Origin: Escherichia phage RobRod40
Reading direction: 5' to 3' (one strand)
DNA length: 47,574 bases
Sequence record: OR896835.1
This document shows positions 2,153 through 42,014 of this stretch, in pieces. Every line of letters starts with the position of its first letter. The first letter of the stretch is position 1. The notes under the pieces are model-generated. The model was not told the origin of the DNA, did not search any database, and worked only from the letters and a program-made list of their open reading frames with translations. A program made the position numbers and the translations under genes.

Positions 2153-2183
2153 TACCTCACGAAAACGAGAGGAGAAAAGACAA

Positions 2184-2570
2184 ATGAAAAGCATTTCAAA
2201 AGCTGTATATCTTGGCAACACTAATGGGGAGTATTATGGTTTTACTGTAGGTAATACATATAGTGTTAAATATTTTGAAGCTATAAGTGAAAACTGTTTT
2301 TGGTGTTCAGATGATGATGGTGTTTACCGATATGTCAAAAACGGACCATTGCACAAGTTTAAACTAAGTGATGAGGATGGCTATTTTGTAACTGAGGCTG
2401 AATGCGAAGTCATGCCCCCTATAGACGATAAAAAACCCGAGCTTAGATATTACATCAACGGACATGAGGTTGACGTGATTGAGTTCGGAAATGTTGGCCG
2501 TACTGTATATGAGCTTGATCGGGATGGCATAAAGTGCGACACAATCAAGTTCGAAGTAAAATTCGAGTAA
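2184..2570 (+). CDS. hypothetical protein (accessory gene between HNH and portal)
   Basis: 128-aa ORF with RBS GAGAGGAG; own upstream promoter-like module and downstream terminator. Confidence 0.6.
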   Translation: MKSISKAVYLGNTNGEYYGFTVGNTYSVKYFEAISENCFWCSDDDGVYRYVKNGPLHKFKLSDEDGYFVTEAECEVMPPIDDKKPELRYYINGHEVDVIEFGNVGRTVYELDRDGIKCDTIKFEVKFE

Positions 2571-2592
2571 CCATAAAAGCTATGATAAACTA

Positions 2593-2616
2593 AGCCCCTA
2601 TATGGGGCTTTTTTAT
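2593..2616 (+). terminator. rho-independent terminator
   Basis: GC hairpin AGCCCC-tata-GGGGCT followed by T-run. Confidence 0.7.
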
Positions 2617-2627
2617 TGGAGAAAAAC

Positions 2628-3881
2628 ATGGTCAAGACAGACAGCTACGCCAATATCTTTCTCGGCGGTAGTGATGGTAGTGAGATTTACGGAAGTTTAC
2701 AGAATCAGGCACCAACAATTCTGGCCTCGCTTTACGCGGATAATGCTCTAGTGCGTCGAATTATCGACACAATCCCAGAGACGGCATTGGCGGCAGGATT
2801 CCATATTGATGGTATTGATGATGAGCCTGCATTCTGGTCGCGCTGGGATGATTTAGAAATGACGCAGAATATTAACGATGCATGGTCATGGGCTAGGTTG
2901 TTCGGCGGGGCTGCTATTGTCGCTATCGTTAAGGACAATAGAGCGCTAACAAGTCCGGTAAGAGAAGGAGCGGAACTTGAAACTGTTCGCGTTTACGACC
3001 GTACACAAGTAAAGGTTCAAACTCGCGAGGAGAATCCACGCAATGCACGTTTTGGTAAGCCACTTACCTATCGCATCACCACTAACGAAAGCGATATGTT
3101 TTACGATGTGCATTACAGCCGCATTCACGTCATCGATGGCGAGAGAATTCCTAACGTAATGCGTCGGCAAAATGATGGCTGGGGCCGCAGCGTTCTTTCC
3201 AGTGATATTCTTGACTCAATCAAGGATTACACCAATTGCGAACGACTCGCCACCCAGCTGCTGAGACGCAAGCAACAGGCGGTGTGGAAAGCCAAAGGTC
3301 TGGCTGAGCTGTGTGATGATAGCGAAGGATTTGGTGCCGCGCGCTTGCGACTTGCTCAGGTAGATAACAACAGTGGAGTTGGTCAGGCGATTGGTATTGA
3401 CGCGGAATCTGAAGAATATAGCGTTCTAAACTCTGATATTGGCGGGATTGATGCGTTTCTGGACAAGAAGCTCGATAGAATCGTTGCACTGAGCGGTATT
3501 CATGAAATAATCCTGAAGAACAAGAACGTTGGCGGTGTATCATCAAGCCAGAACACGGCTTTGGAGACATTCCACAAGCTAGTTGACCGCAAGCGTAATA
3601 GCGAGCTACTTCCTATTCTTGAGTTCTTAATCCCGTTCATTGTTAATGTGTCTGAATGGTCAGTGGAGTTTAACCCATTAGCTCAGGAGTCAAGCAAGGA
3701 TAAAGCGGAAATTCTGGAGAAGAACGTAAACAGCATCGCGGCACTAATTGCAGCTGGAGCTATGGATACTAACGAGGCTCGTGATACACTACGCACTATC
3801 GCGCCAGAGATTAAGATTGGTGATGGTGATATTGAGGCTCCGGAACAAGAACCCGCAGAGGAGGTTGTGATTAATGAGTAA
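2628..3881 (+). CDS. portal protein
   Basis: ~417-aa ORF after terL; ATG at 2628 preceded by GGAG (ORF-track start 2616 is TTG); size and position typical of siphovirus portal. Confidence 0.7.
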   Translation: MVKTDSYANIFLGGSDGSEIYGSLQNQAPTILASLYADNALVRRIIDTIPETALAAGFHIDGIDDEPAFWSRWDDLEMTQNINDAWSWARLFGGAAIVAIVKDNRALTSPVREGAELETVRVYDRTQVKVQTREENPRNARFGKPLTYRITTNESDMFYDVHYSRIHVIDGERIPNVMRRQNDGWGRSVLSSDILDSIKDYTNCERLATQLLRRKQQAVWKAKGLAELCDDSEGFGAARLRLAQVDNNSGVGQAIGIDAESEEYSVLNSDIGGIDAFLDKKLDRIVALSGIHEIILKNKNVGGVSSSQNTALETFHKLVDRKRNSELLPILEFLIPFIVNVSEWSVEFNPLAQESSKDKAEILEKNVNSIAALIAAGAMDTNEARDTLRTIAPEIKIGDGDIEAPEQEPAEEVVINE

Positions 3882-4962
3882 AATCCGCTATGACAGCGCA
3901 AAGTTTAAAGCAACAATCGACGAGAATGGATTCTTAGTCGACACACCAGTAGTTGCACGTCTCGGCGTGCAAGTCTACTACATGGAAGACGGGCGCACTG
4001 TTCGAGAGTTTCGCCCAGCAGAGGAGGTTTTCAAGGAGGAATCACTCGCAAGTTACCAGGGCAAGCCAATGACTATGGACCATGTTTTCGTTAACTCTGA
4101 GAACGCTAAAGAAGTAGTGGTGGGTTCCGTTAGTGGCAAAGCTGAGCCATTAGGTAGCTCCGTGGTTGCTCCTATCGTTGTTTACGACAATACAGCCATT
4201 CAGGAAGCTATGGCAGGTAACGCTAAGGAGTTATCGGTTGGATACTCTGCGATTCTTGACGAAACTCCAGGTTGGGGCGACCCTGTTACTGGTGAATACG
4301 TCCTTAAATCTGATGGTGATCAATTCGATGCGCCAGAAGGATGGCAGGAGTTCGACGCAATTCAGCGTGATATTAAAGTTAACCATCTCGCAATGGTGTA
4401 TCGCGGTCGCGCAGGTATTGCCAAATTGAATATGGACGGTGAGCAGGAAAACCCGTATACTACTGACGTTGATATCAATAAAGAGGATAAACAGGAAATG
4501 ACAATTAAGATTAAACTCGACGGCGCACAGGAATTTGAAGTTGCCCCGGAAATCGCTTCTCACATCGAAGCACTGAACGCAAAGGCCGATACCGCAATCG
4601 CTGAGCGTGATGCACTGAAAGCTAAAGTAGATGCTATGCCAGAGGAAATCGAAGCCGCTGTAGCCAAAGCAAAAGCTGATGCTGATGCTCTCGCCGCTCT
4701 GGTTGCTGTTGCTGCTGAGGCTGGCGTTAAGGCTGATGGTATGGATTCTAAAGGAATCAAAGTAGCTTACGTTAAAGAAGTCTCCGGTCTTGATGTTGCT
4801 GAGAAATCTGACGCGTACATCGACGCAGCGTTCGACATTGCCAAAGAATCTGATAAAATGGCTGAAGTACGTAAAGCGACTACCGCTTCCGACAAATCTG
4901 ACAGCGCCAATGAGCCTAAGAAATTAGACCCGCGTGCTCGTTTAGCTAAAATTAAGAAATAA
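3874..4962 (+). CDS. putative head morphogenesis / scaffolding protein (possible prohead protease domain)
   Basis: 362 aa; globular N-terminal half then Ala/Glu/Lys-rich predicted coiled coil (AKADTAIAERDALKAKVDAMPEEIEAAVAKAKADADALAALVAVAAEAG); start overlaps portal stop. Confidence 0.5.
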   Translation: MSKIRYDSAKFKATIDENGFLVDTPVVARLGVQVYYMEDGRTVREFRPAEEVFKEESLASYQGKPMTMDHVFVNSENAKEVVVGSVSGKAEPLGSSVVAPIVVYDNTAIQEAMAGNAKELSVGYSAILDETPGWGDPVTGEYVLKSDGDQFDAPEGWQEFDAIQRDIKVNHLAMVYRGRAGIAKLNMDGEQENPYTTDVDINKEDKQEMTIKIKLDGAQEFEVAPEIASHIEALNAKADTAIAERDALKAKVDAMPEEIEAAVAKAKADADALAALVAVAAEAGVKADGMDSKGIKVAYVKEVSGLDVAEKSDAYIDAAFDIAKESDKMAEVRKATTASDKSDSANEPKKLDPRARLAKIKK

Positions 4963-4974
4963 GGAGTTATAAAC

Positions 4975-5496
4975 ATGGCAATTCGTTCCGTAGCACTGGC
5001 TGGTATGGTTTCTGATACCTCTCTCTATAACATCGACGGCGCTTGTGTTGTTGGTGGCGCAGCAGCAATTCCTGTTGGCACTGTCGTTGGTGTTACATCC
5101 GCTCAGCCTGTAGATGGTCACAAGGTTGTTGGCCTTCCCGCCGTAACTGGTACGCCAGTCAAACCTTATGGTGTTGTTGTTAAATCTCATTACGAGACCC
5201 CAGATGGTACGGCTCGCGTAAATGAAGCAGTTAACGTAATGACTCATGGTCGCATCTGGGTACGCACCACTCTAGCAGCTGCGCCAGTTTTTGGTAGCAA
5301 GGTTTTCGTAAACGCAAGTGGTGTTGTTGTTGCTGAAGCGGCTGGCACTACTTGGGAGACTGGTTTTACATTTGCTGGTGGTTATGCGTCTGCTTATGCT
5401 GGCGGCGCTAACCCAATCAAGCAAGGTGAAAGCTACGATGGTGCAATCGTTGAGGTTCAGCTGATTCAATCCGCTGACTCAGCTGTCGCAGCTTAA
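4975..5496 (+). CDS. putative capsid decoration / structural protein
   Basis: 173 aa, Gly/Val/Ala-rich; strong RBS TAAGGAG; followed by rho-independent terminator; position between scaffold and capsid. Confidence 0.45.
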   Translation: MAIRSVALAGMVSDTSLYNIDGACVVGGAAAIPVGTVVGVTSAQPVDGHKVVGLPAVTGTPVKPYGVVVKSHYETPDGTARVNEAVNVMTHGRIWVRTTLAAAPVFGSKVFVNASGVVVAEAAGTTWETGFTFAGGYASAYAGGANPIKQGESYDGAIVEVQLIQSADSAVAA

Positions 5497-5502
5497 TTAC
5501 AC

Positions 5503-5523
5503 GGCCCTTCGGGGCCTTTTTTA
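5503..5523 (+). terminator. rho-independent terminator
   Basis: GGCCC-ttcg-GGGCC hairpin then TTTTTT. Confidence 0.75.
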
Positions 5524-5534
5524 ATGGAGGCTTT

Positions 5535-6080
5535 ATGATAAAAGTATTTTCTGGTGACTTCGAGTTCGCGCATGAGGCTGATGCATTTCTTAATGATGCA
5601 ATTTCCTCAGGATTCAAATATCTAGTTAGATCTCTGAGCACATCACAAATGATTCAGGCCTATAGTCGCAGCGACACAACGCCAGGGAAAGGGGTTATAA
5701 GAAAGGACGGGGTGAGAGTTTTGGGTGTAGCCCTGTCTGACGACCCTAGATGCGGAGAATTGGTTGATGAATTTTCGGTTTTTAAGTCAGCGGAGTATGA
5801 GGAGTATACCCATGAGATTGATGGTGTATGGGTTAACTATATCCACAATGACTTCTTAGATAAATTAAATGATGGCTGGAGGACGGTTACAGACAACAGC
5901 GTATCTCCTTTAAGCTACTACTATCAGGTGTTGACGTGGTCATGGGAGTACAGCTACTATTACACAAGATCATCATCAACTTATGGTATTTGCTTTTTGG
6001 CTAGATTTGCAAATCATGATTCAACTAAAAAGTCTGGTTGGGCTTTAGTCAAGTACGAAGAAGTTGACTCTCCAGAGTAA
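5535..6080 (+). CDS. hypothetical protein (terminator-flanked, moron-like)
   Basis: 181-aa ORF, RBS GGAGG; flanked on both sides by strong terminators; Tyr/Ser-rich C-terminus. Confidence 0.55.
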   Translation: MIKVFSGDFEFAHEADAFLNDAISSGFKYLVRSLSTSQMIQAYSRSDTTPGKGVIRKDGVRVLGVALSDDPRCGELVDEFSVFKSAEYEEYTHEIDGVWVNYIHNDFLDKLNDGWRTVTDNSVSPLSYYYQVLTWSWEYSYYYTRSSSTYGICFLARFANHDSTKKSGWALVKYEEVDSPE

Positions 6081-6085
6081 ATTAA

Positions 6086-6109
6086 AGCCTCCTTCGGGAG
6101 GTTTTTTTA
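6086..6109 (+). terminator. rho-independent terminator
   Basis: CCTCC-ttcg-GGAGG hairpin then TTTTTTT. Confidence 0.75.
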
Positions 6110-6161
6110 TGCCTGTAATCTGTTAGACTTATTAAGTATATTAACCAATCAGGAGATTAAG

Positions 6162-7595
6162 ATGGCTAGTGAATTAAGAGCAGTGACTGCTGGTACTGCC
6201 CATGCCCTAAAGCAAAAAATCACCGAATACATAGCTGAAGGTTGGCAGCCTTATGGCAGGATCCTTAATGCTGGGGCGACAAGTGTTGGCATTATAATGG
6301 CGAAAGGTACTGAGGCAAACATTACTGATGTTGATGTTATTACCGCAGATTCAAGGGCTTCCTTAGTTTCTAAGATTAACTCATCCATAGAAAATGGATT
6401 TGAGATGTTCGGCGAGCAGGAAGTGAACGCAAGTAGATTTATCGCATTCATGACTAAAGGGTCTCAAGGTTCATCTGGTGGCGGTGGTGAACCTGGACCA
6501 ATTGGACCAAAGGGTGATAAGGGAGATAAGGGTGACAAGGGAGACGTTGGTGAGCGCGGACCCGCTGGCGTAGCTGGTTCTGCTGGCGCTACAGGCCCGA
6601 CAGGCCCTCAGGGTTTAACTGGACCTGCTGGCGAAAAAGGTGATACTGGAGAGCAAGGCCCAATTGGCCCTACTGGTCCCACTGGCCCAAAGGGTGATAC
6701 TGGCGCAACTGGCCCCGCCGGACCGCAAGGCCCAAGAGGATTGCAAGGTGAACAGGGGGTTCCGGGCGAGGTTGGACCGGCTGGCTTGACATTCCAGGGC
6801 GCATGGGATTCTGCCTCCACATATGTGAAGGATGACACTGTAGTTTATGATGGATCTACTTGGTTTGCTCCAGATGCTGTAGCCTCAGGTTTGGTTCCAG
6901 GTGTTGCTCCTGAGTGGATCCTTTTAGCTGCACAAGGCGCAAGGGGAGAGGATGGTCCGCAGGGTCCGGTTGGCCCTCAGGGTTTACAGGGTGCCACTGG
7001 CCCGGCAGGTCCTACTGGCGCTACTGGCGCTACAGGTCCGCAAGGTCCCAGAGGTATACAAGGTCAAACCGGCCCGGCAGGTCCAGCAGGTCCTCAGGGT
7101 GAGGCTGGTCCTCAGGGTATTCAGGGACCACAGGGTATCGCTGGACCTCAGGGATTAACTGGCCCTCAGGGTCCAAAGGGTGATAAAGGTGATGCTCCTT
7201 ACACATTGTTTAACTCGCAGAACGTTACATCAACATACATTGAAATCCCCATTCCGCAAGTAACCAACACTGTACTTAGGGTTAGGCTTTCAGGTGCCAA
7301 CTTTGAATATAGCGTTTTAAGTAAAGGTGGCGCTAATAGATATGTTGACTTTTACACATTCATCCCGTCATTAACCAGCTCAACGGGTAACATCTATACC
7401 GGAGGAACCACCTTAACACCAACTGGTAGTCTTTTTTTGGGTAATTCCCCTGTGGCTCTCGGGTTAAGGGAGTTGACAATAACACTTAAGGAATGGGGTG
7501 ACAGGACACTAACTACAATAAAGGCGATACATCACGGCAGATCAGGTGACACAACAAGACCCTTGCAGATAACTATGTTTAGTAATAAGTATTAA
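6162..7595 (+). CDS. collagen-like repeat fibre protein
   Basis: Two long Gly-X-Y repeat tracts interrupted by a [13 protein letters not shown] tail-fibre-like segment; non-collagenous N- and C-terminal domains. Confidence 0.8.
6513..6548 (+). repeat. tandem 9-bp coding repeats (GGTGATAAG-like x4) in collagen-like gene
   Basis: ggtgataag ggagataag ggtgacaag ggagacgtt encoding [11 protein letters not shown]. Confidence 0.7.
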
Positions 7596-7609
7596 CAAAA
7601 AGCCCACCA

Positions 7610-7637
7610 TTGCGTGGGCTAAAAACTCGTGTATAAT
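7610..7637 (+). promoter_or_regulatory. candidate promoter for major capsid gene (TTGCGT-16-TGTATAAT)
   Basis: Perfect TATAAT at 7632-7637 with upstream TG; -35 region overlaps hairpin 7601-7620. Confidence 0.4.
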
Positions 7638-7675
7638 AAACCCGTAGACACCTAACTGAAAAGGAACAATAAAGA

Positions 7676-8620
7676 ATGGCCATTAAATTTGATGCAGAAC
7701 AAGCAAAAATCACCGCTCACCTCGAGCAAATGGGCGTAGATAAAGCTGATGCCGCCGGTATCTGGACCGTTAAGCAGCTGACCGCCACCCTGAATCGTGC
7801 TTACGAAAAAGAATATGCAGACAACTCCGTTGTTAACATCTTCCCTGTAACCAATGAAATCCCTGGTCACGCTAAGTATTTCGAATATCCAGAATTTGAT
7901 GGCGTTGGTATTGCTCAGATTATCGCGGATTACTCTGACGACCTGCCGCTGGTTGATGCTTTCATGACAGAGAAGCAAGGTAAAGTTTTCCGTTTCGGTA
8001 ACGCATTCCTGATTTCTACTGATGAAATTAAAGCAGGCGCTGCTACTGGTCAGTCTCTGTCAACTCGCAAACAGGCACTGGCTTTCGAAGCGCACGACAA
8101 CCTGCTGGATAAACTGGTTTGGTCTGGATCCACTCCGCACGGTATCGTGAGCGTATTCGACCAGCCGAACATCAACAACGTTGTTGCAACACCAGACTGG
8201 AGCGAGCCGCTGAACGCAATTAATGACGTTACTGCAATGATTGATGCGGTTGAGACTTCAACTCAGGGCTTCCATCACGTGACTGATATTCTACTTCCGG
8301 CATCTGCTCGCCGAGTAATGCAGGTTCTTGTTCCGAGTACTACCCTGAGCTACGGTGAGCTGTTCACCCGTAATAATCCGGGCCTGACTATTCGTTACAT
8401 GCAGTTCCTGGATAACTACGATGGCGCAGGTGGTAAGGCTGCTCTGGCGTTTGAAAAGAACCCGTTGAATATGTCTATCGAGATTCCAGAAGCTACAAAC
8501 GTACTTCCTGGTCAGCCGAAAGACTTGCACTTCAAGTACCCAGTAACTTCTAAAGCGACCGGTCTGATTGTTTATCGCCCTCTGACGATGGCAGTAATCA
8601 AAGGTATTACCTTCGCGTAA
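7676..8620 (+). CDS. major capsid protein
   Basis: 314 aa; own promoter with perfect TATAAT; strong terminator downstream; position in head module. Confidence 0.75.
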   Translation: MAIKFDAEQAKITAHLEQMGVDKADAAGIWTVKQLTATLNRAYEKEYADNSVVNIFPVTNEIPGHAKYFEYPEFDGVGIAQIIADYSDDLPLVDAFMTEKQGKVFRFGNAFLISTDEIKAGAATGQSLSTRKQALAFEAHDNLLDKLVWSGSTPHGIVSVFDQPNINNVVATPDWSEPLNAINDVTAMIDAVETSTQGFHHVTDILLPASARRVMQVLVPSTTLSYGELFTRNNPGLTIRYMQFLDNYDGAGGKAALAFEKNPLNMSIEIPEATNVLPGQPKDLHFKYPVTSKATGLIVYRPLTMAVIKGITFA

Positions 8621-8626
8621 TAAATC

Positions 8627-8649
8627 GCCCTCTTCGGAGGGCTTTTTTA
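8627..8649 (+). terminator. rho-independent terminator after major capsid gene
   Basis: GCCCTC-ttcg-GAGGGC hairpin then TTTTTT. Confidence 0.8.
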
Positions 8650-8653
8650 CGTC

Positions 8654-8682
8654 TGTACCAAATGGATTTGTTCGGTTATAAT
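8654..8682 (+). promoter_or_regulatory. candidate promoter with perfect -10 TATAAT (weak -35)
   Basis: TATAAT at 8677-8682 then AACAAAGGAG RBS; shares downstream layout with 46465-46494. Confidence 0.3.
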
Positions 8683-8712
8683 CACTCAATCAGATAAACA
8701 AAGGAGACAAAA

Positions 8713-8958
8713 ATGATTCGTTTAGAACACACTGGCGCTTGCCTTATCGTTTACAAGGGTGAGAAATATTTACCAGGCGACACTTTCGAGGTTGATGTAA
8801 TTTGCGACGGACTCAAGCGCTTAATCGCAGAGGGTAAGCTCACCATTGAGGGTGACACCAAAGCAACCAAGCAGATCGCGCAGGAAATTGTTAGCAAGAA
8901 GAAGCGCAAAGAACCGAAAACCATCTCCGAAGCTGAGACTGGTAACGAGTACAAATAA
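8713..8958 (+). CDS. hypothetical protein (Lys-rich C-terminus)
   Basis: 81-aa ORF, RBS AAGGAG; TATAAT promoter upstream; terminator-like hairpin downstream. Confidence 0.55.
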   Translation: MIRLEHTGACLIVYKGEKYLPGDTFEVDVICDGLKRLIAEGKLTIEGDTKATKQIAQEIVSKKKRKEPKTISEAETGNEYK

Positions 8959-8964
8959 CAAACA

Positions 8965-8986
8965 GGGCGCTTCAGCGTCCTTTATT
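8965..8986 (+). terminator. possible weak terminator
   Basis: GGGCGC-ttca-GCGTCC (one G-U) then TTTATT. Confidence 0.4.
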
Positions 8987-8999
8987 GTATGGAGCTAAT

Positions 9000-9401
9000 A
9001 TGAATGATGAAATTTTGGCGTTTATGCGATCTCTTGTTCCTGCGCTCAAGGAAGTGGATGATGAATCAATTAATGTGTGGGTCGATTTGGCACGCCTCTA
9101 CGTATGTGAGGATAAGTTTGGTAATGATGCAGATCGCGCTGTGGGCCTTTATGCACTACACCTGATGCTTTCTGATGGAGCGTTTAAGGGTGAGAATGAA
9201 GGCTTGGAAACATACAGCCGTAGAATGGCGAGTTATGCACTGAGCGGTGAATTCTCTATCACTTATGATAACCAGTCAGCAATTCAGGGCGACTTATCAT
9301 CTTCCTCCTGGGGCCGTATGTACAAAGCACTTCTCCGCAAGAAAGGTGGCGGCTTTGGATTGATTACTTCCGCTCGTGTCGGTGGGTGCGGTTGCCGATG
9401 A
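9000..9401 (+). CDS. putative head-tail connector/adaptor protein
   Basis: ATG at 9000 preceded by GGAG (track start 8985 is TTG); gene order between capsid and tail genes. Confidence 0.45.
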   Translation: MNDEILAFMRSLVPALKEVDDESINVWVDLARLYVCEDKFGNDADRAVGLYALHLMLSDGAFKGENEGLETYSRRMASYALSGEFSITYDNQSAIQGDLSSSSWGRMYKALLRKKGGGFGLITSARVGGCGCR

Positions 9402-9769
9402 ACTACAAAGAAATCGAATCAATCACTCGCGCTGGAATTAACTTCTTTAGTGATTCTAATGGCGTTTACGAGATGAGCACTGGCGCTGGATATGTTAAGA
9501 TCGTTAATGGTGTTGAAGTAGAAGTGCCAGCACAAACATTCCAGTTAAAGGGTTTGGTGCGGGAAATCAAGACGCGCGATATCGATGGTGAGTTTATCCA
9601 GTTTGGAGATAAACGCGGAATCTTCACGGCTCAGGTGGAAATCAAGCAGGGTTATCAGATTGAAGTTGATGGTGAAACTTTTGTTGTTGTTGACCCTCGA
9701 CCAGTTAAACCAACCGGCACAGTTGTTGGGTATAGACCGATTCTTCGCAGGGTGGCTACATATGGCTAG
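9398..9769 (+). CDS. putative head-tail joining protein
   Basis: ATGA start/stop overlap with upstream gene; position in head-tail connector block. Confidence 0.45.
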   Translation: MNYKEIESITRAGINFFSDSNGVYEMSTGAGYVKIVNGVEVEVPAQTFQLKGLVREIKTRDIDGEFIQFGDKRGIFTAQVEIKQGYQIEVDGETFVVVDPRPVKPTGTVVGYRPILRRVATYG

Positions 9770-10211
9770 TTTTATACCGAAGGCTAATGGTGGGGTTATT
9801 GAATTTAGCCGCTCCATTTCTGAATGGATAGATAAGGTTGAGTCTGGAGTTGAGGAAGTTGTTGCAGGAACCATTATCAACACAGCTAAGGGGCTGGTAG
9901 ATCAGTCACCAGTTGACACCGGAAGGTTCAAGGCCAACTGGCAAATAACAGCAAACTCCCCGGCTCAACAGTCAGTAATTGACTATGATAAGCTTGGGAC
10001 TGAGACAAAAAGAGCGCTCGCAAGACAGGCCAGGGCAGTAGCTAGATCGAAGGGAACAAAAGTTATTTACATAACAAACAGGCTTGATTACTCAATTCAC
10101 CTTGAGTATGGCGGCTCAGGCCAGGCTCCAAACGGCATCATTAGGATTGTTCAAATGAGGCTTGGTAGATACTTCCAGGAAGCTATAGAGGAGGCTAAGC
10201 GTGCACTATGA
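9762..10211 (+). CDS. putative neck / tail completion protein
   Basis: ATG at 9762 overlapping upstream stop; track ORF 9585..10211 has implausible N-terminal extension; position-based call. Confidence 0.4.
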   Translation: MASFIPKANGGVIEFSRSISEWIDKVESGVEEVVAGTIINTAKGLVDQSPVDTGRFKANWQITANSPAQQSVIDYDKLGTETKRALARQARAVARSKGTKVIYITNRLDYSIHLEYGGSGQAPNGIIRIVQMRLGRYFQEAIEEAKRAL

Positions 10212-10602
10212 ATTATCTATAGCAGCCAGAAAATATGTTAATGATTTGCTGGTGAGCAACTTCCCTGTCAGATATCCAGTATCCTGGGAAAATGTTTCTT
10301 TCACTCCTCCAGCAGATGGCTCTATCTGGCTAAAGTATGACTATATCGAGGTTGATACCGTAACCTACGGACTTAGCAGGAAGTGCAAATACTATGTAGG
10401 AATGGTGCAGGTTTCTGTTTTCTTTAGCCCTGGTACTGGCATTGACAAGCCGAGACAAATCGCTAATCAATTGGCAGAATCTATCGTTGATGGTACAATG
10501 CTTGACAGCGGGACCATTTATGAGTCTGGAGTTGTTAACCCGGTTATCAAATCCAAATCTGGGTGGTTTATCCCGGTTCATTTTTATGTTCGTCTAGACT
10601 AG
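10201..10602 (+). CDS. putative tail terminator-like protein
   Basis: GTG start preceded by GGAGG; overlaps upstream stop; position before major tail gene. Confidence 0.4.
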   Translation: MHYELSIAARKYVNDLLVSNFPVRYPVSWENVSFTPPADGSIWLKYDYIEVDTVTYGLSRKCKYYVGMVQVSVFFSPGTGIDKPRQIANQLAESIVDGTMLDSGTIYESGVVNPVIKSKSGWFIPVHFYVRLD

Positions 10603-10610
10603 GAACTAGC

Positions 10611-11096
10611 ATGAAAGATTTCTTAAATTCTCTTTACGATTATCGCGATGGAAAGATTTACAAGAAGGGCGGTGATAAACCATGTGGTTACGGTAAGACA
10701 AATGGCTACGTTCAAACATACGTTTCAAAGACTGGTAAGCGATATGTTCATAGATTGATCTGGGAAATGCATAATGGTGAAATTGCATATGGAATGCAGA
10801 TAGATCACATTAATGGTGTTAGGGATGATAATCGAATTGAGAATTTAAGATGCGTGACCGTAACTGATAACAGAAGAAATGCTGGAACCAGGTATCGCTC
10901 ACGTAGATTTCCTGGAGTTAATGGAGTAAACTACAACAAGCGCGATGATCTTTGGCATGCAATTATTTCTGACAAAGGAAGAGCAAGGAGTCTTGGTCAT
11001 TATAAGAGTTTTGTCTCAGCTTGCGAAGCAAGGATTGTCGCTGAAGTATTATTGGGATATCACGCTGGTCACGCAATGCGGGATAGCGTTTATTAA
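10611..11096 (+). CDS. HNH homing endonuclease (paralog 2)
   Basis: ATG at 10611 after AGGA; HRLIWEMHNG and IDHINGVRDDNRIENLR motifs; inserted between tail-completion and major tail genes. Confidence 0.85.
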   Translation: MKDFLNSLYDYRDGKIYKKGGDKPCGYGKTNGYVQTYVSKTGKRYVHRLIWEMHNGEIAYGMQIDHINGVRDDNRIENLRCVTVTDNRRNAGTRYRSRRFPGVNGVNYNKRDDLWHAIISDKGRARSLGHYKSFVSACEARIVAEVLLGYHAGHAMRDSVY

Positions 11097-11105
11097 TCTA
11101 ACTTA

Positions 11106-11780
11106 TTGAATTGGAGGTGTATTATTGCCCATCTCAGCAATGGCACGCAGGTCTTCGTAGAAGGCTCTCGCGGAGCTGCAATTGACGTAACTGCAATTTC
11201 TAACTCAGTTACCCCTGTTTTAACTGTATCTGACGCATCTGGATTGGTTGTTGGTGATTACCTTCTTTTCACCTCTTCTGCCTCCACGCTTCTGGCTGAT
11301 AAGCAAGTTCGCGTAACTGCAATCACTGGTACGTCAGTAACTGTTGAAGGTATTGATACCTCTAGCACTACAAAGTTCCCAGCCGGTTTAACTGGTGAGG
11401 TTGTTAAAATCACCTCTTGGTTCGAAGTTCCGTGTGTTCAGGACGTATCTACTGATGGCGGCGAACAGCAGTTCGTTAACTTCCAGTGTTTGTCCGATGA
11501 CCGTGAACAGCAGATTCCGACTTATAAATCTGCCGTAACGAATACCTTCACCTTTGCTCACGAGTACACCAACCCGGTCTATCCGGTCCTGCGTAACTAC
11601 GATGAGTCAGGTCAGGTTGTCGCGATTCGCCTGTTCGTACCTCGAGCTAGCGAAATGCGTTTGCAGTCCGGCACTATCGCTTTCAATGACACCCCCACCA
11701 TTGGTGTTAACGAAATCGAAACGGTATCCATCGCAGTATCCATTCGTGGCCGCCTGTCCTCTGTGGCAGCTGAAGTTTAA
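11106..11780 (+). CDS. major tail (tube) protein
   Basis: ~220 aa; strong terminator immediately downstream; position before chaperone and tape measure; start uncertain (no in-frame ATG/GTG near GGAGG at 11113-11117). Confidence 0.6.
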   Translation: MNWRCIIAHLSNGTQVFVEGSRGAAIDVTAISNSVTPVLTVSDASGLVVGDYLLFTSSASTLLADKQVRVTAITGTSVTVEGIDTSSTTKFPAGLTGEVVKITSWFEVPCVQDVSTDGGEQQFVNFQCLSDDREQQIPTYKSAVTNTFTFAHEYTNPVYPVLRNYDESGQVVAIRLFVPRASEMRLQSGTIAFNDTPTIGVNEIETVSIAVSIRGRLSSVAAEV

Positions 11781-11787
11781 AACATAA

Positions 11788-11809
11788 ACCCTCTTCGGAG
11801 GGTTTTTTA
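11788..11809 (+). terminator. rho-independent terminator after major tail gene
   Basis: ACCCTC-ttcg-GAGGGT hairpin then TTTTTT. Confidence 0.8.
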
Positions 11810-11813
11810 TTGC

Positions 11814-11857: not shown

Positions 11858-11890
11858 TACTTCATCGAAACGAAATGAGAGATTAAAGAA

Positions 11891-12277: not shown

Positions 12278-12295
12278 AATAGAGGATAAAACGAG

Positions 12296-12953: not shown

Positions 12954-12965
12954 ATGGAGGCTTAG

Positions 12966-32971: not shown

Positions 32972-33011
32972 CACGAATTGCTAAATACGAATCGGTGAGG
33001 TGGTGTATTAT
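32968..33011 (+). promoter_or_regulatory. conserved promoter-like module (ATAGCAC-gaa-TTGCTAAA, 22 bp, TATTAT)
   Basis: Palindrome GAGGTGgtgtattatCACCTC spans -10; leader CATCGAAACGAAAC. Confidence 0.6.
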
Positions 33012-33047
33012 CACCTCATCGAAACGAAACACAGAGAGAGAAACAAA

Positions 33048-33251
33048 ATGGCTACTATCTACACCACTAAGAAATACATTTCACGTAAAACTGGTTACGA
33101 GTATAACCTTGTTCTTGATGACTCGCTCGGCATGCTTCTCGCTGACGCTGAAGATGCTGAATACTGCTTTGAAGTTAGCCCGACTTACAAAGATGATTTA
33201 GAAACTGTTAAAAACGAATTTGGCGAAAAATTTGATGAGGTATCAGAATAA
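33048..33251 (+). CDS. hypothetical protein
   Basis: ATG 33048 after RBS AGAGAGAG and promoter-like module; track ORF 33000 start lacks RBS. Confidence 0.5.
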   Translation: MATIYTTKKYISRKTGYEYNLVLDDSLGMLLADAEDAEYCFEVSPTYKDDLETVKNEFGEKFDEVSE

Positions 33252-33863: not shown

Positions 33864-33907
33864 ATAGCACTTTTTGTTAAAACTAAAATCCACGGATGGA
33901 TTATATT
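33864..33907 (+). promoter_or_regulatory. conserved promoter-like module (ATAGCAC-ttt-TTGTTAAA, 22 bp, TATATT)
   Basis: Spacer palindrome ATCCAcggATGGAT; leader CATCAACAACG. Confidence 0.6.
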
Positions 33908-33937
33908 AAACACATCAACAACGCAGAGGGTTAAAAA

Positions 33938-34135
33938 ATGAAGGCAATTGTCGTTTACAACGCGAAAGGTCGCAATTACTTTACTGTTGGGAATATTTAC
34001 GATGTTTCACCAGCTTACCCTAAAGATGAAGAACAGTTATTATTTGATGTTACTGACGATGAAGGCGATCGTGTCTCAATAATAATTAGCGAATCTGCTG
34101 ATTGCGCTCATGGTTTCGTTTGGGAGCTTTTATAA
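33938..34135 (+). CDS. hypothetical protein
   Basis: 65-aa ORF, RBS AGAGGG. Confidence 0.5.
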   Translation: MKAIVVYNAKGRNYFTVGNIYDVSPAYPKDEEQLLFDVTDDEGDRVSIIISESADCAHGFVWELL

Positions 34136-35973: not shown

Positions 35974-36017
35974 ATAGCACTTTTTGCCTAACCCATGCCG
36001 TAGAAATGCGGCATAAT
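35974..36017 (+). promoter_or_regulatory. conserved promoter-like module (ATAGCAC-ttt-TTGCCTAA, 22 bp, CATAAT)
   Basis: Spacer palindrome TGCCGtagaaatGCGGCA; leader CATCGAAACGAG. Confidence 0.6.
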
Positions 36018-36058
36018 CACCACATCGAAACGAGATAAACTAAACGAGGAAACACAAA

Positions 36059-36235
36059 ATGACTAAAATGATTTATTGCACCAAGAACAATTCAAAGACG
36101 CTGCCATTTACAGTTAACCAGCCGTACAACGCAGAGTACCAGGGCGACGGATATTACAAAATTTATGGCGACGATATGACGCACATCTTAGCGCCGATTG
36201 ATGGTTCGTTAGTTGAATTTATTATCGCCGAGTAG
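36059..36235 (+). CDS. small hypothetical protein (58 aa)
   Basis: Below track cutoff; preceded by promoter-like module and RBS AACGAGGA; followed by strong terminator. Confidence 0.4.
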   Translation: MTKMIYCTKNNSKTLPFTVNQPYNAEYQGDGYYKIYGDDMTHILAPIDGSLVEFIIAE

Positions 36236-37785: not shown

Positions 37786-39369
37786 TCACCCCAACAGTCG
37801 TGGATTAATGTAAACTTTATCACCAATCAGGCACGTATAGTTTTTCTCATCAAGCATTGGCAGTAAGTGATCTTTAATCTTTGTCATTACACCAGCCTGA
37901 GCCTCAAACGGCTTAACCTTTCGAGCCGCCTCATACAATGAACGAATACCAACTACACCTTTCCCGTTCTTGCCTTGCTTGATCAGTATATCAACCAGCT
38001 TGCTCATCTCAGCATGGTCGCCAGCGTGACCAGCAGCGTTAGCTGATGACAGATAAGTCTTACTCAGTTCCTGGAACATAATTACAGCCTCTTGCATGGT
38101 GTCGAGCTCGATCTCTCTGGACTTCTGTGGACTACCGCCATTTGGGCTGAACCAGTTGCGCACAGTGTGAAGAACAGCTGCAATCCTGATGGCCTGCTTA
38201 TCGAACTTACCCAACGCGCCACGTAACATTGTGTGTGAATACTTCCCGCCATCTGCAAGGTGAGGCTCCATCTCCTGACGCGCACGGTTTAGGTATTTCA
38301 TCGCTGAGTTGCTCACTGTCAGCTTAACATCTTGCTCATTCATTATTTCATGAACTAAAAGGAAGTAATCTGCCTTCAGCCCGCTATTAATTGGTTCGTA
38401 TGTTGAGTTGCCATTCTCATCAACGAATACGCGCTCACCAAGGAATGATTTTTCACGAACCAAAAGGAAGCGTTCAGATACACCGATACCGCGCGCACCA
38501 GCATTCATGATGGCGTTGATTGTTTCATCCTGCGCAATTACAGAGATGCAACCCATAGCAACGAAACTCATGTTATTTTCTGCGTTGGCACGCGCAATGG
38601 ATACGCTACCAGCGTCCCACGCTTTCAGTACAAGTTCGCTGTTCGTTTTCTTCGAGCCATCACCGTAAGTCATGCCAAGAAGTGAGTTGACGCTCGTTGC
38701 CTCATCCGAAATTACCGCAAAGTTGCCCTGGCGGTTGTTTATTCGCGCAAGACCTTCAGGCGTGGTATCTGATACTGGAAATACGATATCACACAGCTTC
38801 TCGAGTTTCTCCTCTAACTCCTCTTTCTCCTCAAAAAGAGAAGCCATCTCAGAGGGTGACTTTTCCTGCTTCATCTCTTTGGACAATGCAGATAGTTTGG
38901 CCATGATCTTTTTGCGCTCACGCTTTCGCACCTCATTCAGTCGCTCATTCTCAGAAATCATCGGAGCAAGGGCTAGTGAGTTGATGGCCGATTTACCCGT
39001 AGATGGTGGCTGACTGGTTACGACATATAGCGACGTTGGCTGCTGTGTGCCGTGATACTCGACAGTAAAGCGCCCAAGCATGGCAGCGGAAATACACCCC
39101 AGGAAGTGCATATAAGCTGAAGATTCGGGAAATTGAACAGAGCGAGCAATGTTAGCTGACAGTTTGCCAACAACATCAACATCATTACCGAGTGAGATTA
39201 CGGGATACTTGTCATTAGCAGCATCAATCTCTACTGGCGCTTTCCAGAATGATTGAGACTGTCGATAGCCATTGGCATTAATAGCCACTCGCAGAGGTGG
39301 AAGGTTGTCTGCGGCAGCAATTGCCATAACCTGCTCAACAGATAGTTTATCTTCGTTGAAATCAAACAT
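37786..39369 (-). CDS. P-loop containing protein (long paralog of 42539..43063)
   Basis: 527 aa; Walker A-like QPPSTGKS; N-terminal ~40 aa and C-terminal ~65 aa align with the 174-aa + strand protein; extended -10 promoter and GGAGAG RBS. Confidence 0.6.
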   Translation of the reverse strand: MFDFNEDKLSVEQVMAIAAADNLPPLRVAINANGYRQSQSFWKAPVEIDAANDKYPVISLGNDVDVVGKLSANIARSVQFPESSAYMHFLGCISAAMLGRFTVEYHGTQQPTSLYVVTSQPPSTGKSAINSLALAPMISENERLNEVRKRERKKIMAKLSALSKEMKQEKSPSEMASLFEEKEELEEKLEKLCDIVFPVSDTTPEGLARINNRQGNFAVISDEATSVNSLLGMTYGDGSKKTNSELVLKAWDAGSVSIARANAENNMSFVAMGCISVIAQDETINAIMNAGARGIGVSERFLLVREKSFLGERVFVDENGNSTYEPINSGLKADYFLLVHEIMNEQDVKLTVSNSAMKYLNRARQEMEPHLADGGKYSHTMLRGALGKFDKQAIRIAAVLHTVRNWFSPNGGSPQKSREIELDTMQEAVIMFQELSKTYLSSANAAGHAGDHAEMSKLVDILIKQGKNGKGVVGIRSLYEAARKVKPFEAQAGVMTKIKDHLLPMLDEKNYTCLIGDKVYINPRLLG

Positions 39370-39399
39370 TATTTCTCTCCGTGTTGTTTCTGAGCGGAC

Positions 39400-39443
39400 A
39401 TTATATCAACGACCGCTTTTAATTCATTATCAATTTGTGCTAT
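39400..39443 (-). promoter_or_regulatory. conserved promoter-like module on minus strand (ATAGCAC-aaa-TTGATAAT, 22 bp, TGaTATAAT)
   Basis: Extended -10 TGnTATAAT; precedes 527-aa P-loop gene. Confidence 0.6.
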
Positions 39444-39794
39444 TTAAATGTATTGCACCTCGAAATGGTAAGTCTGGCAAAGAGTGTAAAATCCAACATC
39501 CTCGCTACGGTAAAGCTGCCAAGCGTTGCCATCTTCATCGTAAATGTAACCCGCAGATTGACCAAGACCAGCATGAAGATTAACTTGATATCGCTTTCCT
39601 TCTTTGAAGTCTTTTTTAACTCCTGACTTGTGGTTAACCTTCGTACAGTAAATCGTCTTCGTCTTGATGTACCTACCGCGTTCTTCCAGGTTAACCCATT
39701 TACCATCTTTCTTGATTTGCTCTACACCGTCTTTAACACGAGCTTTGTATAATACGTTTTCGTTGCTAATGAAGTTTTTAGTTGTTGCTGTCAT
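39444..39794 (-). CDS. hypothetical protein
   Basis: 116-aa ORF with its own promoter-like module. Confidence 0.5.
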   Translation of the reverse strand: MTATTKNFISNENVLYKARVKDGVEQIKKDGKWVNLEERGRYIKTKTIYCTKVNHKSGVKKDFKEGKRYQVNLHAGLGQSAGYIYDEDGNAWQLYRSEDVGFYTLCQTYHFEVQYI

Positions 39795-39830
39795 TTTGAT
39801 TTCCTTTGCGTGCTTCGTTTCGATGAGATG

Positions 39831-39874
39831 AATATACAGGAAAAGCCCCGAAGGGCTTTAGCAATTAGTGCTAT
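39831..39874 (-). promoter_or_regulatory. conserved promoter-like module on minus strand (ATAGCAC-taa-TTGCTAAA, 22 bp, TATATT)
   Basis: Terminator hairpin sits inside the 22-bp spacer; leader CATCTCATCGAAACGAAG. Confidence 0.6.
39840..39858 (-). terminator. terminator-like hairpin embedded in a promoter-module spacer (minus strand)
   Basis: Minus-strand AGCCC-ttcg-GGGCT then TTTT, lying between the TTGCTAAA motif and the -10-like hexamer. Confidence 0.5.
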
Positions 39875-41128: not shown

Positions 41129-41304
41129 TTTTGCAACTCCGCTTCGTAGTATTCGTATGAATTGAACTTATCGATTTCGTTCATCTTCTCGCAAACCTGC
41201 TCTGCCATCTGCTCACTTAGGCATACGCAGTGGACGGCTGTGTCGTAATCCGGATCACGCGGTTCAGAAATCACGACGTAGCAATACATTTTTACAGTGC
41301 TCAT
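41125..41304 (-). CDS. small hypothetical protein (59 aa)
   Basis: First ORF of minus-strand operon; RBS GGAGAAAA; ~40 bp downstream of promoter-like module. Confidence 0.35.
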   Translation of the reverse strand: MSTVKMYCYVVISEPRDPDYDTAVHCVCLSEQMAEQVCEKMNEIDKFNSYEYYEAELQK

Positions 41305-41345
41305 TTATTTTCTCCAGTTCTCTTCACTCATTTCGATGAGCTAAC

Positions 41346-41389
41346 TATATCCTCCCCGACTGATAATGTCTTTAACAAAAAGTGCTATT
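41346..41389 (-). promoter_or_regulatory. promoter-like module on minus strand (ATAGCAC-ttt-TTGTTAAA, ~22-23 bp, TATAGT-like)
   Basis: Leader TAGCTCATCGAAATGAG; adjacent to inverted-repeat operator array; precedes minus-strand operon. Confidence 0.5.
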
Positions 41390-41407
41390 CGTTGGATTTA
41401 CGTATTG

Positions 41408-41470
41408 TTGCAGATATTGCAATGATTCACATGATTATTGCACATAAAGCAATATTGCTTCAGATGCAAT
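41408..41470. promoter_or_regulatory. inverted-repeat operator-like array
   Basis: TTGCA-N5-TGCAA (41408-41422) and two abutting ATTGC-N7-GCAAT sites (41437-41453, 41454-41470) just upstream of minus-strand promoter module. Confidence 0.4.
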
Positions 41471-41630
41471 GATGTTTTTGATTGTTGCGAAAATTGAAAT
41501 GAAGTGGTGAGTGAGTGAATGAAAGATGGATGGACTACCATACAAGTTGATTTTTATTCTGGCTGAGCCATTTTCATGCTTACGCGTAAACGAAATAACT
41601 AGCTGTATGCCATTTGCGTCCGCGGGAAAT

Positions 41631-41660
41631 CGTATACGCATGATACGCAGCGATACGCAC
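41631..41660. repeat. iteron-like direct repeats (3 x ATACGC at ~10-bp period)
   Basis: cgtATACGCa / tgATACGCag / cgATACGCac. Confidence 0.5.
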
Positions 41661-41728
41661 TAGTTACATTAAAACATCCTTATATAACAACCATTTATCT
41701 ATATTATTATTATTATTATATATATATG
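41661..41728. repeat. AT-rich module CTAGTTACATTAAAAC...(TAT)6(AT)n, copy 2
   Basis: Homologous to 23345-23405; (TAT)6 at 41702-41719. Confidence 0.6.
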
Positions 41729-41947
41729 TATGCTATGTAAGCCATGTCATATGGTGAAGTTGATATATTTCTATGATTTATTCCTACACATGTAGGAATG
41801 AGACTACTTTGTAGGAATGAAAAGGCATATATAGGCATGAATCTCCAAAAAGTTGGCATACATGGCACACGCAGCCATTTACACCAGTCATGTCGAGCAC
41901 TATTCCCAAATAAACGTAGGCAATCGCCATTGATACACAAATTAACG

Positions 41948-41976
41948 TTGACTTACAGGTTAACCATCAATATAAT
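41948..41976 (+). promoter_or_regulatory. near-consensus sigma70-type promoter (TTGACT-17-TATAAT)
   Basis: Canonical hexamers and spacing upstream of 42015 operon; followed by ATCATCGAAACAACAAACGA leader. Confidence 0.6.
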
Positions 41977-42014
41977 GACAATCATCGAAACAACAAACGA
42001 AAAGAGGATATACA

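Follow-up and report, generated by a model that had tools for sequence, protein, structure and literature searches.

Introduction

The genome of Escherichia phage RobRod40 (record OR896835.1; we call the whole analysed stretch of 47,574 nucleotides the window) carries a short conserved block, CATCGAAACGA, behind the -10-like hexamers of a series of predicted promoters, and here we describe the element to which this block belongs. The closest described system is the PeSL (promoter-early stem-loop) of phage RB49, a composite terminator/promoter cassette that extends from the stop codon of the gene before it across an AT-rich tract, a -35, a -10 and a Shine-Dalgarno (SD) sequence to the ATG (PMC2839356, PMC4122927). 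PeSLs have been reported in the T4-type phages RB49/phi1, PST/T4 and nt-1/KVP40 (Arbiol 2010, PMC2839356; Comeau 2014, PMC4122927), and their stem, in which a G-run pairs with a C-run and G-T pairs occur, lies mostly between -35 and -10 or over the -10 (PMC2839356, PMC4122927). One RB49 PeSL stem terminated transcription as well as rrnB T1, and the RB49 PeSL promoters were so strong that cloning was hard; termination and strong promoter activity have been demonstrated for PeSL211/210 and 206/205 of RB49 only (PMC2839356).

Among the T1-like phages, TLS was described as carrying 18 copies of a 21-nt repeat whose function was left open (stoperator, enhancer site or UP element), and this published TLS/T1-like repeat is the one found in the window, in like orientation and ~76 nt from the start codon (PMC11447400). 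The accessible portion of the TLS paper lists three intergenic sigma70-like promoters, with no -10 at a fixed distance, no stem and no shared start (PMC11447400).

RobRod40 is a complete Rtp/T1-like siphophage of the family Drexlerviridae. Its megablast matches are vB_EcoS-type coliphages at ~84% identity to the window, and local blastn finds the window collinear with phage Rtp at 73-96% identity, from exactly the terL start codon.

A conserved block behind -10 hexamers

At no more than one mismatch, CATCGAAACGA matches the window eight times against 0.73 ± 0.80 expected, a count reached by none of 100 shuffles, and YCATCGAAA occurs six times against 0.77 expected. Predicted starts at which at least 10 of the 11 block positions match are 11864, 23207(-), 33018, 36024, 39824(-), 41337(-) and 44828, together with 41984, where a sigma70-type promoter carries the block as CATCGAAACAA. 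The copy at 2153 is looser (CACGAAAACGA, 8/11), and related variants stand in other cassettes: CATCAACAACG (24934, 33913), CATCAACCACA (43932), CATACCAAACG (44384) and TATCAACACAA (45570). The exact core octamer ATCGAAAC has only three further copies, all within coding sequence (11715, 31226, 33398).

An earlier note on this DNA had proposed that a block recurring at eight listed sites, immediately after -10-like hexamers, forms a leader common to most mRNAs of the phage. All eight sites are present where it had placed them, each of the 8 matches to CATCGAAACGA lies ~6 nt past a -10, and the block is indeed common to motif-type and canonical promoters, being found also behind the sigma70-type promoter at 41948-41976, where there is no repeat; the list itself fell short of two further copies, at 23208(-) and 41338(-). 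Opening most mRNAs with the same ~12 nt was too broad a claim, the strict block being present in only about half of the promoters of the genome.

The block belongs to a terminator-promoter-leader cassette of ~76 nt with a fixed layout. We consider it probable that it is the promoter-proximal part of a repeated cassette of PeSL type, composed of a terminator or attenuator stem, a promoter for the host RNA polymerase and a short leader; on the best reading, the block is not an RNA signal specific to Drexlerviridae. In its 5' half the cassette opens on the stop codon of the preceding gene, in many cases the TAG of ATAGCAC; next come the published 21-nt repeat, aaATAGCACnnnTTGnTAAAA, and a 20-nt spacer. 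In the 3' half follow a (TG)n TATAgT -10, a C-rich 6-nt discriminator yACCyC, the start C-1/A+1 and then the initial transcribed sequence (ITS) AUCGAAACGA, the opening of a ~25-nt leader that is A-rich, U-poor and unstructured and has SD and ATG at its end. All motif-type promoters hold the block at a constant distance, with 6 nt of discriminator between the -10 hexamer and the start, and 18 promoter-like sites of the window share one architecture: ATAGCACnnnTTGcTAAA, 20 nt, TATAgT, 6-nt discriminator, C/A, short leader, SD and ATG. The block as first described thus falls into three parts, namely yACCyC at -6..-1 as the discriminator, the start C-1/A+1 and the opening ten bases of the transcript. 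The cassettes, related copies and sigma70-type promoters are as follows, the A before each ITS being the predicted start:

1569-1638 (+): degenerate copy of the repeat, 3 mismatches, ahead of the HNH gene 1636-2112
2109-2186 (+): cassette ahead of virion protein/portal genes; repeat 2109-2126, -10 TATAGT 2147-2152, TACCTC 2153-2158, A2159, ITS ACGAAAACGA, ATG 2184; no stable stem (z +0.8); the HNH open reading frame (ORF) upstream stops at the TAG of the repeat
11814-11893 (+): cassette of a gene ahead of the tape-measure module; -10 TATAGT 11852-11857, TACTTC, A11864, ITS ATCGAAACGA (11/11), ATG 11891; bidirectional terminator 11786-11805 just upstream, weak stem only (TTTGATG/CATCGAA)
23172-23258 (-): cassette ahead of an Rtp45-like lipoprotein gene; -10 TATTAT 23214-23219, TACCAC, A23207, ITS ATCGAAACTA (10/11), ATG 23174
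23654-23723 (+): sigma70-like promoter; TTGGAC 23654-23659, 16 nt, TATAAA 23676-23681, GTTACCTC-ATCGAAAGC, A23690, ATG 23721; block begins 9 nt past the -10, shifted by 2 nt relative to the other copies
24885-24960 (+): cassette ahead of an Erf-like gene; -10 TATGAT 24923-24928, TACCCC, A24935, variant ITS ATCAACAACGA, ATG 24958; stem 24916-24937 around the -10 (RNA fold -15.5 kcal/mol, z -5.3)
30467-30558 (+): degenerate cassette ahead of a helicase gene, divergent from the helix-turn-helix (HTH) regulator gene 29981-30454(-)
32968-33050 (+): cassette behind a VRR-NUC gene; -10 TATTAT 33006-33011, CACCTC, A33018, ITS ATCGAAACGAAAC (11/11), ATG 33048; 14-bp stem 32992-33022 encloses the -10 and takes in +1..+5 (-20.2 kcal/mol, z -5.5)
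33864-33940 (+): cassette; -10 TATATT 33902-33907, A33914, variant ITS ATCAACAACG, ATG 33938
35974-36061 (+): cassette of a gene ahead of the lysis genes; -10 CATAAT 36012-36017, CACCAC, A36024, ITS ATCGAAACGAGATAAAC (11/11), ATG 36059; hairpin 35995-36014 abuts the -10 (z -4.2)
39367-39443 (-): cassette ahead of a helicase gene; -10 TATAAT 39400-39405, ITS CAGAAACAAC, ATG 39369; stem 39393-39417 encloses the -10 (z -3.4)
39792-39874 (-): cassette; -10 TATATT 39831-39836, CATCTC, A39824, ITS ATCGAAACGA (11/11), ATG 39794; spacer holds a terminator-like hairpin, GCCCcttcGGGGC, followed by TTTT
41302-41388 (-): leftward cassette of a divergent early region; -10 TATAGT 41344-41349, TAGCTC, A41337, ITS ATCGAAATGA (10/11), ATG 41304
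41948-42017 (+): near-consensus sigma70 promoter, no repeat; TTGACT 41948-41953, 17 nt, TATAAT 41971-41976, GACAATC-ATCGAAACAAC, A41984, ATG 42015; 11/12 match to the sigma70 consensus, best in the genome
43060-43145 (+): cassette with repeat and no block (3/11); -10 TATAGT 43098-43103
43883-44001 (+): cassette; -10 TATAAT 43921-43926, A43933, ITS ATCAACCACA; stem 43902-43930, GGGGATT/AATCCCC, around the -10 (z -2.0)
44335-44410 (+): cassette; -10 TATAGT 44373-44378, A44385, variant ITS ATACCAAACGA, ATG 44408
44778-44854 (+): cassette; -10 TATAGT 44816-44821, TACCCC, A44828, ITS ATCGAAGCGA (10/11), ATG 44852; stem 44803-44828, GGGGTAA/TTACCCC, encloses the -10 (z -4.0)
45521-45597 (+): cassette; -10 TATAAT 45559-45564, TACCCT, A45571, ITS ATCAACACAA, ATG 45595
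46998-47072 (+): cassette; -10 GATAAT 47036-47041, start at about A47048, ITS AACAAACTAA, ATG 47070

For a view of the whole family, 279 unique sites with the repeat were gathered from the window, T1, TLS, Rtp and IMG/VR loci. The information profile comes from 170 unique promoters with a good -10, and stems and ORFs were counted in 164. In 171 of the 279 sites, precisely 20 nt separate the repeat from the -10. In the profile, the repeat occupies -52..-31 and is followed by G-14 (134/170) and a hexamer T-12 A-11 T-10 a a/g T-7, in which T, A, T and the final T are found in 137, 170, 150 and 170 promoters, respectively; T-15, the T in the TGn of an extended -10 sigma70 promoter, is present in 71/170. 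Information content reaches 0.67 bit at C-3, 0.99 at C-1 and 1.29 at A+1, with 0.3-0.9 bit at each position from +2 to +11, and the consensus from A+1 on reads A-T-C-G-A-A-A-C-G-A-A, so that the block is conserved family-wide, yet far below the upstream repeat (~30 bits). Leaders, measured from +1 to the ATG, peak sharply at a length of 25 nt. In 129 of the 164 promoters the repeat marks the end of a co-directional ORF that is 60 codons long or longer. The TAG of ATAGCAC is its stop in 76 of these 129, and in most others the stop lies within the repeat or next to it; transcripts of the upstream gene therefore have to enter the stem. Among the other repeat-linked stops, the TAA of GCTAAA accounts for 18/129 and a stop just ahead of the repeat for 13, and ORFs are closed in more than one frame.

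Predicted start site and core promoter

The A of ATCGAAACGA, which the earlier note took for the start, is the seventh nucleotide past the -10 and on sequence grounds a likely start: C stands at -1 in 129 and A at +1 in 148 of the 170 promoters. E. coli RNA polymerase usually prefers to start at about the seventh base past the -10, behind a pyrimidine. Moreover, for the T7 promoters A1 (gatact TACAGCC ATCGAGAGG) and A3 (tacgat GTACCAC ATGAAACGACAG), the T7 record puts the starts on the equivalent A, and A3 in block register reads TACCAC and then ATGAAACGA. When the 59 promoters whose leader is not 24-26 nt long are aligned on the promoter, the block holds 7.4 bits, against 4.3 bits when they are aligned on the ATG; because of this difference, and because the block follows the promoter at 41948 that lacks the repeat, we consider it tied to the start site and not to the repeat or the ribosome binding site. 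The same promoter indicates that the ITS block is independent of the 21-nt repeat.

A result of this registration is that the first six bases of the block, yACCyC, which had been counted as leader RNA, precede the predicted start; they make up the discriminator, and in many copies they also serve as the 3' arm of a stem that covaries. The genome shows no excess of sigma70 promoters (28 vs 30, 30 vs 37 and 14 vs 17 expected).

The 21-nt repeat contains inverted halves, TAGCA-N5-TGCTA, whose centre lies at -42 when counted from the predicted start, a position that agrees with class II activator geometry (dimer site at ~-41.5 over the -35 region). The only DNA-binding candidate that we found is a Cro-like HTH protein of 157 aa (29981-30454(-), phrog_2856). 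The TTGCTAAA of the repeat resembles a Mot box. In T4 the Mot box (tTGCTTtA) is centred at ~-30, 11-13 bp from the -10, whereas TTGCTAAA lies at -40..-33, ends 20 bp from the -10 and is within the inverted repeat, unlike a MotA middle promoter; we identified no MotA or AsiA homologue. The closest analogue of the T1-like variant is the PmSL of nt-1, described as having a Mot box in place of the -35, that is, a TGCT-containing activator box plus a -10 (PMC4122927).

A covarying stem between spacer and discriminator

The discriminator can pair with the stretch of spacer that directly precedes the -10; the arms vary among promoters while the pairing is kept, as in GGGGTA/TACCCC, GGGGTT/AACCCC, AGGCCA/TGGCCT, AGGCACA/TGTGCCT and GATGCGTG/CACGCATC; over 25 different arm pairs can be told apart. 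In Rtp the orthologue (37795) of the 32968 promoter has arms that differ, yet are complementary (GATGGGG/CCCCATC). Segments -26..-15 and -8..-1 of one and the same promoter form a longest helix of 4.79 bp on average, compared with 3.78 bp when arms come from different promoters (z 14), and an outer helix of -33..-23 with +1..+10 is weaker (z 3.8), these sequences being phylogenetically related, so that the z-scores are inflated; three control region pairs gave z -0.4 to -1.6. In a fixed register, 52% of positions are paired, compared with 47.5% in column shuffles and 38-45% with slid partners, and the fold energy of -32..+8 averages -11.7 kcal/mol, against -5.0 kcal/mol for shuffles. G-T pairs add to the covariation signal and A-C pairs do not, which points to a stem of the sense strand and disfavours a cruciform formed on both DNA strands.

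Among the 164 promoters, 68 (~40% of the family) have a G/C-rich stem that encloses the -10 in its loop, and in 56 the stem abuts the T-rich -10 in the fashion of a terminator; in a further 22 it has some other position, and in 18 it is weak. A stem that abuts the -10 (39874-, 35974) has the form of an intrinsic terminator, a stem directly followed by a U tract, and T1 sites of this kind are annotated as terminators. The stem of the 43060 cassette appears broken, judged against AGGCCA...TGGCCT of T1/TLS.

Likeness to PeSLs and T7 early promoters

RB49 sequence, which we read directly, shows GGGGnn...nnCCCC stems around the -10 and then CATCGAAACGA, for example ...cGGGGATATagcataATATCCCCATCGAAACGAGATAC... 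and ...GGGGGTAgtaataTACCCCCATCGAAACGAAATAC..., with stem, discriminator and ITS as in the window. PeSLs and T1-like cassettes are alike in the discriminator, in their CATCGAAACGA / CATACC(G)AAACGA leaders, in the stem and in having indel boundaries at cassettes. From -10 to ATG, identity to RB49 PeSLs amounts to 70-85% in the cassettes of T1, Rtp and the window (41/55 for the 35974 cassette and one PeSL), the variant ATACC(G)AAACGA of the 44335 cassette recurs in RB49 PeSLs, and RB49 PeSL starts outscore control promoters well on the Drexlerviridae matrix. Like PeSLs, the T1-like cassettes form a unit from stop codon (the 76/129 TAG stops) to SD and start codon (25-nt modal leader), with a stable G-run/C-run stem between the upstream element and the -10 or over the -10.

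The two differ upstream: PeSLs have an AT-rich tract and a TTGACA at 17 nt, whereas T1-like cassettes have the 21-nt repeat, ATAGCACnnnTTGnTAAAA, which ends 20 nt from the -10, and only the 41948 and 23654 promoters of the window are sigma70-type, with a -35. The downstream half of the T1-like cassette is thus a PeSL half, and the differing upstream half defines a variant. T1-like cassettes, in Drexlerviridae siphoviruses, also head late structural and lysis genes, in contrast to PeSLs, which head only early ORFans. The available sections of the PeSL papers do not single out a conserved start or ITS (PMC2839356, PMC4122927).

The T7 promoters A1 and A3, which are strong early promoters for the host polymerase, have discriminator, start and ITS almost as in the block; A3 is one base from AUCGAAACGA, and the TACCAC-ATCGAAAC of the 23172(-) cassette nearly equals its TACCAC-ATGAAAC. 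Unlike the cassettes, A1 and A3 have a canonical -35, a 7-nt discriminator and no stem, and are one base from the block (an indel in A3).

The question that the TLS paper left receives a testable answer, with the 21-nt repeat appearing as an upstream promoter element that has its -10 at a fixed 20 nt, inside a terminator-promoter-leader cassette. The common stem, start and leader half link T1-like siphoviruses to the PeSLs of T4-type phages, pointing to exchange or strong convergence between unrelated coliphages.

The block in other phages and in bacteria

Scanning IMG/VR with TAnnnT-N5-CATCGAAACGA gave at least 120 loci, and among the matches listed 114 of 141 lack the Drexlerviridae repeat; a looser form of promoter and block, TAnnnT-N5-6-CATCGAAAC, is proposed for a wider scan. 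Among those listed, 59 of 93 unique non-repeat viral sequences have a TTG at -35 with a 16-18 nt spacer, against ~5% by chance, and many block-bearing viral promoters run on into SD and ATG 20-35 nt downstream. In bacteria, with one genome per species, only 10 of 116 matches listed have such a -35 (Fisher P = 1e-17 vs viral), and the bacterial occurrences look like chance.

The block stands behind a promoter of Klebsiella phage KP15 at the rIIA/rIIB region, behind promoters of Cronobacter phages LPCS28/S13 and of Jersey-like Salmonella/E. coli siphoviruses, and in a contig of 244,834 bp of the size of the Vibrio phage KVP40. It is also carried by a family of 27 promoters, among the matches listed, whose counterparts are the HK639 'putative pL' and the O-L region of phi80, and the HK639 transcript start shares 15 nt, CATCGAAACGAAACA. 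As a signal for regulation specific to this phage, the block is therefore no longer tenable, since it is found in PeSL-type cassettes and in sigma70 promoters of other phage groups. To our knowledge, this conservation of start and ITS across families has not been described before; recurring at phage promoters and not in bacterial genomes, they could mark phage promoters in annotation, and they are a candidate part for strong, well-defined expression cassettes.

We rejected the block as a universal sigma70 optimum, because 0 of 140 viral-contig promoters with the consensus TTGACA-N14-TGnTATAAT match it at 9/11 or better, in a sample that probably comes for the most part from other hosts. A -10-enclosing stem as the general partner of the block was likewise rejected: the 59 block-bearing promoters outside Drexlerviridae show no stem covariation (z 0.4), so that stem and ITS are separable. 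One LPCS28-like T4-type contig (L152, position 10899) has a sigma70 promoter with a like -10-enclosing stem, GATGGGGTC...GACCCCATC, followed by ATCGAAACGAG.

The predicted transcribed leader

The leader from +1 to +45 is nearly free of structure (-2.3 kcal/mol; 45-mers drawn at random from the genome give -6.6 kcal/mol) and consists of 48% A and 13% T, with only 7.5% T at +3..+12. A purine-rich, U-poor ITS reportedly fits promoters that are easily escaped, as in studies of T5 N25 ITS variants, and it also suits an open landing site for the ribosome.

The alternative that survives best is a dedicated RNA element at the 5' end, in which AUCGAAACGA(AAC/GAUAC) would be read as RNA, as a protection from pyrophosphate removal and RNase E entry, as a translation enhancer or for the binding of a factor of host or phage. 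We regard it as unlikely, even though several observations are in its favour. The block is anchored to the 5' end and not to the SD; it is conserved to +13..+16 (CGAAACGAAAC, CGAAACGAGATAC) despite differing upstream halves and hosts, the KVP40-size Vibrio phage contig included; its matches have promoter context in viral and rarely in bacterial genomes (the 59/93 and 10/116 given above); and U+2, C+3 and G+4 run counter to the composition of the leader. These are outweighed, in our judgement, by the failure to find a stable structure in the leader, by a complementarity to E. coli 16S rRNA at chance level (best 6 nt; shuffles 5-9 nt) and by an Rfam scan of the window in which only a tRNA reaches the gathering threshold and no family falls on the leader. 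Moreover, half of the block as first described is not transcribed, looser variants, ATCAACAACG and ATACCAAACG among them, suffice in many cassettes of this phage, and no factor is known. In our literature search no paper containing ATCGAAACGA concerns a phage leader. The shared 5' leader function that the earlier note had put forward thus finds neither RNA structure, 16S complementarity nor an Rfam family behind it; a dedicated RNA function of the 5' end is possible, and nothing analysed here indicates one.

More broadly, AUCGAAACGA(AAC/GAUAC) might be a phage-specific signal of the start or 5' end that acts by a defined interaction, with the polymerase in initial transcription or in 5'-end-dependent decay or translation, beyond composition. 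We put this forward only tentatively, and with the same reserve we note that such a signal would have been kept or reacquired by strong promoters of the host polymerase in at least four groups (Drexlerviridae; RB49-, KP15-, LPCS28- and KVP40-like phages of T4 type; HK639/phi80 lambdoid pL; Jersey-like siphoviruses). The extension to +13..+16 across families is left unexplained by general leader properties.

Cassettes as possible boundaries of gene exchange

Of 43 breakpoints of homology between the window and Rtp, 10 fall in cassettes +/- 12 nt, against 1.9 expected (P ~1e-5), a figure to be read with the bias that breakpoints would cluster in intergenic DNA anyway; gene indels and replacements are thus bounded by cassettes, as in PeSLs, with that same bias applying. 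Some lie inside leaders (44832, 45583), others at the ATG (44411, 45597), and also at 39444/39449. Homology to Rtp stops at 1603 and resumes at 2107, and between lies the HNH gene 1636-2112 (Pfam HNH_3, E = 5e-21), flanked by the degenerate and the full copy of the cassette. A second HNH gene is found at 29450-29929(-), and in Rtp a repeat at 21393 precedes an HNH gene of that phage's own.

These data could suggest that the block is a recombination linker and nothing else, its similarity resulting from repeated exchange or gene conversion among cassettes and co-infecting phages, with no sequence-specific role in expression. Breakpoints inside leaders or at the ATG, the HNH gene between two cassette copies, the 70-85% identity of T1-like and RB49 leaders from -10 to ATG and the published crossovers of PeSL mini-circles between -10 and ATG (PMC2839356) all agree with it. 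We nevertheless judge it improbable, as the conservation is position-specific, strongest at C-1/A+1 with a spacer free to vary, as the block is kept beside unrelated upstream halves in Vibrio and enterobacterial phages, T7 A3 and lambdoid pL, and as 10-16 nt is short for homologous exchange.

Terminators and probable read-through of the late region

The late region (2592-18268) has cassettes only at 2109 and 11814, and strong + terminators at 2592, 5503, 8627, 8964, 11786, 12929, 16122 and 18252, several of them bidirectional. Late expression would need read-through or antitermination, because strong terminators stand with no cassette behind them (2592, 5503, 8627, 8964, 12929, 16122, 18252). 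The portal gene starts 6 nt past the terminator 2592-2610.

A signal of the put, ops or Q-site kind, by which a polymerase starting on the block would become resistant to termination, would suit these eight terminators and the HK639 putative pL, which lies ahead of a put-like antiterminator RNA and opens with the same 15 nt, but it is very improbable, given that the annotated HK639 put RNA begins ~70 nt downstream of the block, that T1-like leaders are ~25 nt long and unstructured, that the block also heads single small genes, and that no -10-like pause element is seen in the ITS by inspection. We likewise saw no sigma-dependent pause element or boxA in the ITS by inspection, and rejected the block as a put-like element, since the HK639 match is the pL transcript start, ~70 nt upstream of the annotated put. 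The HK639/phi80 pL also differs from the cassettes in having its own operators and -35, and HK022-type put is an RNA of ~70 nt with two stem-loops, in contrast to the short T1-like leaders; the block was not found in a 6-kb HK022 segment. In HK639 (positions 1500-1572 of locus L239) and ~27 IMG/VR loci, the ~70 nt from the pL start to the put-like RNA (ATCGAAACGAAACATCGAYAGCTGAGSGAAGTTAGCCAGC...) are highly conserved, and the promoters and operators upstream differ.

A model of the cassette and points that weigh against it

Returning to the reading of the block as the promoter-proximal part of a PeSL-type cassette, we propose that the E. coli sigma70 holoenzyme would start at the A of CATCG, with the inverted repeat centred at -42 replacing the -35, probably via a bound factor for which the Cro-like HTH protein would be the only candidate. 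The purine-rich, U-poor ITS AUCGAAACGA may favour a single start and easy promoter escape, and would at the same time give the leader, which leads directly to the SD, an unstructured 5' end. The stem would attenuate or terminate transcripts arriving from the upstream gene, whose stop codon sits in the repeat, and the conserved stretch from -10 to ATG could double as a homology patch for the exchange of gene cassettes.

Several points weigh against this proposal. Our literature search found no 5'-end or start-site mapping for any Drexlerviridae phage, and we therefore infer the start site. The -35 region is not sigma70-like: -35..-30 reads AAAACn and the TTGCTA is 22 nt from the -10, and since, in addition, T-15 is present in only 42% of copies, activity with the host polymerase alone is uncertain. 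About one quarter of the cassettes have no convincing stem, and stems that enclose the -10 lead into AUCGAAAC and not into a U tract; termination at such stems is assumed from the one RB49 stem tested. The relatedness behind the covariation z-scores and the intergenic bias of the breakpoints, both stated with those results, count on the same side, as do U+2, C+3 and G+4, which an A-rich, unstructured leader does not explain.

Other features

In the divergent control region 41302-42017, the leftward cassette (start 41337) stands opposite the only near-consensus sigma70 promoter of the genome, and the first rightward gene encodes a DUF7174 protein. A tRNA-Arg(TCT) lies at 46107-46184 (+) among small ORFs of the early region (Rfam 57.4 bits; ARAGORN).

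A perfect copy of the 21-nt repeat on the + strand, at 28466-28483, stands between minus-strand tail-fibre and primase genes, with no + gene behind it, and leads into the minus-strand terminator 28514-28531. This copy may serve as an antisense promoter or as nothing more than a binding site. Its place is conserved in Rtp (33762) and in T1 (34902), and T1 also has good copies of the repeat at 18850(-) and 15086(-), antisense to + strand late structural genes.

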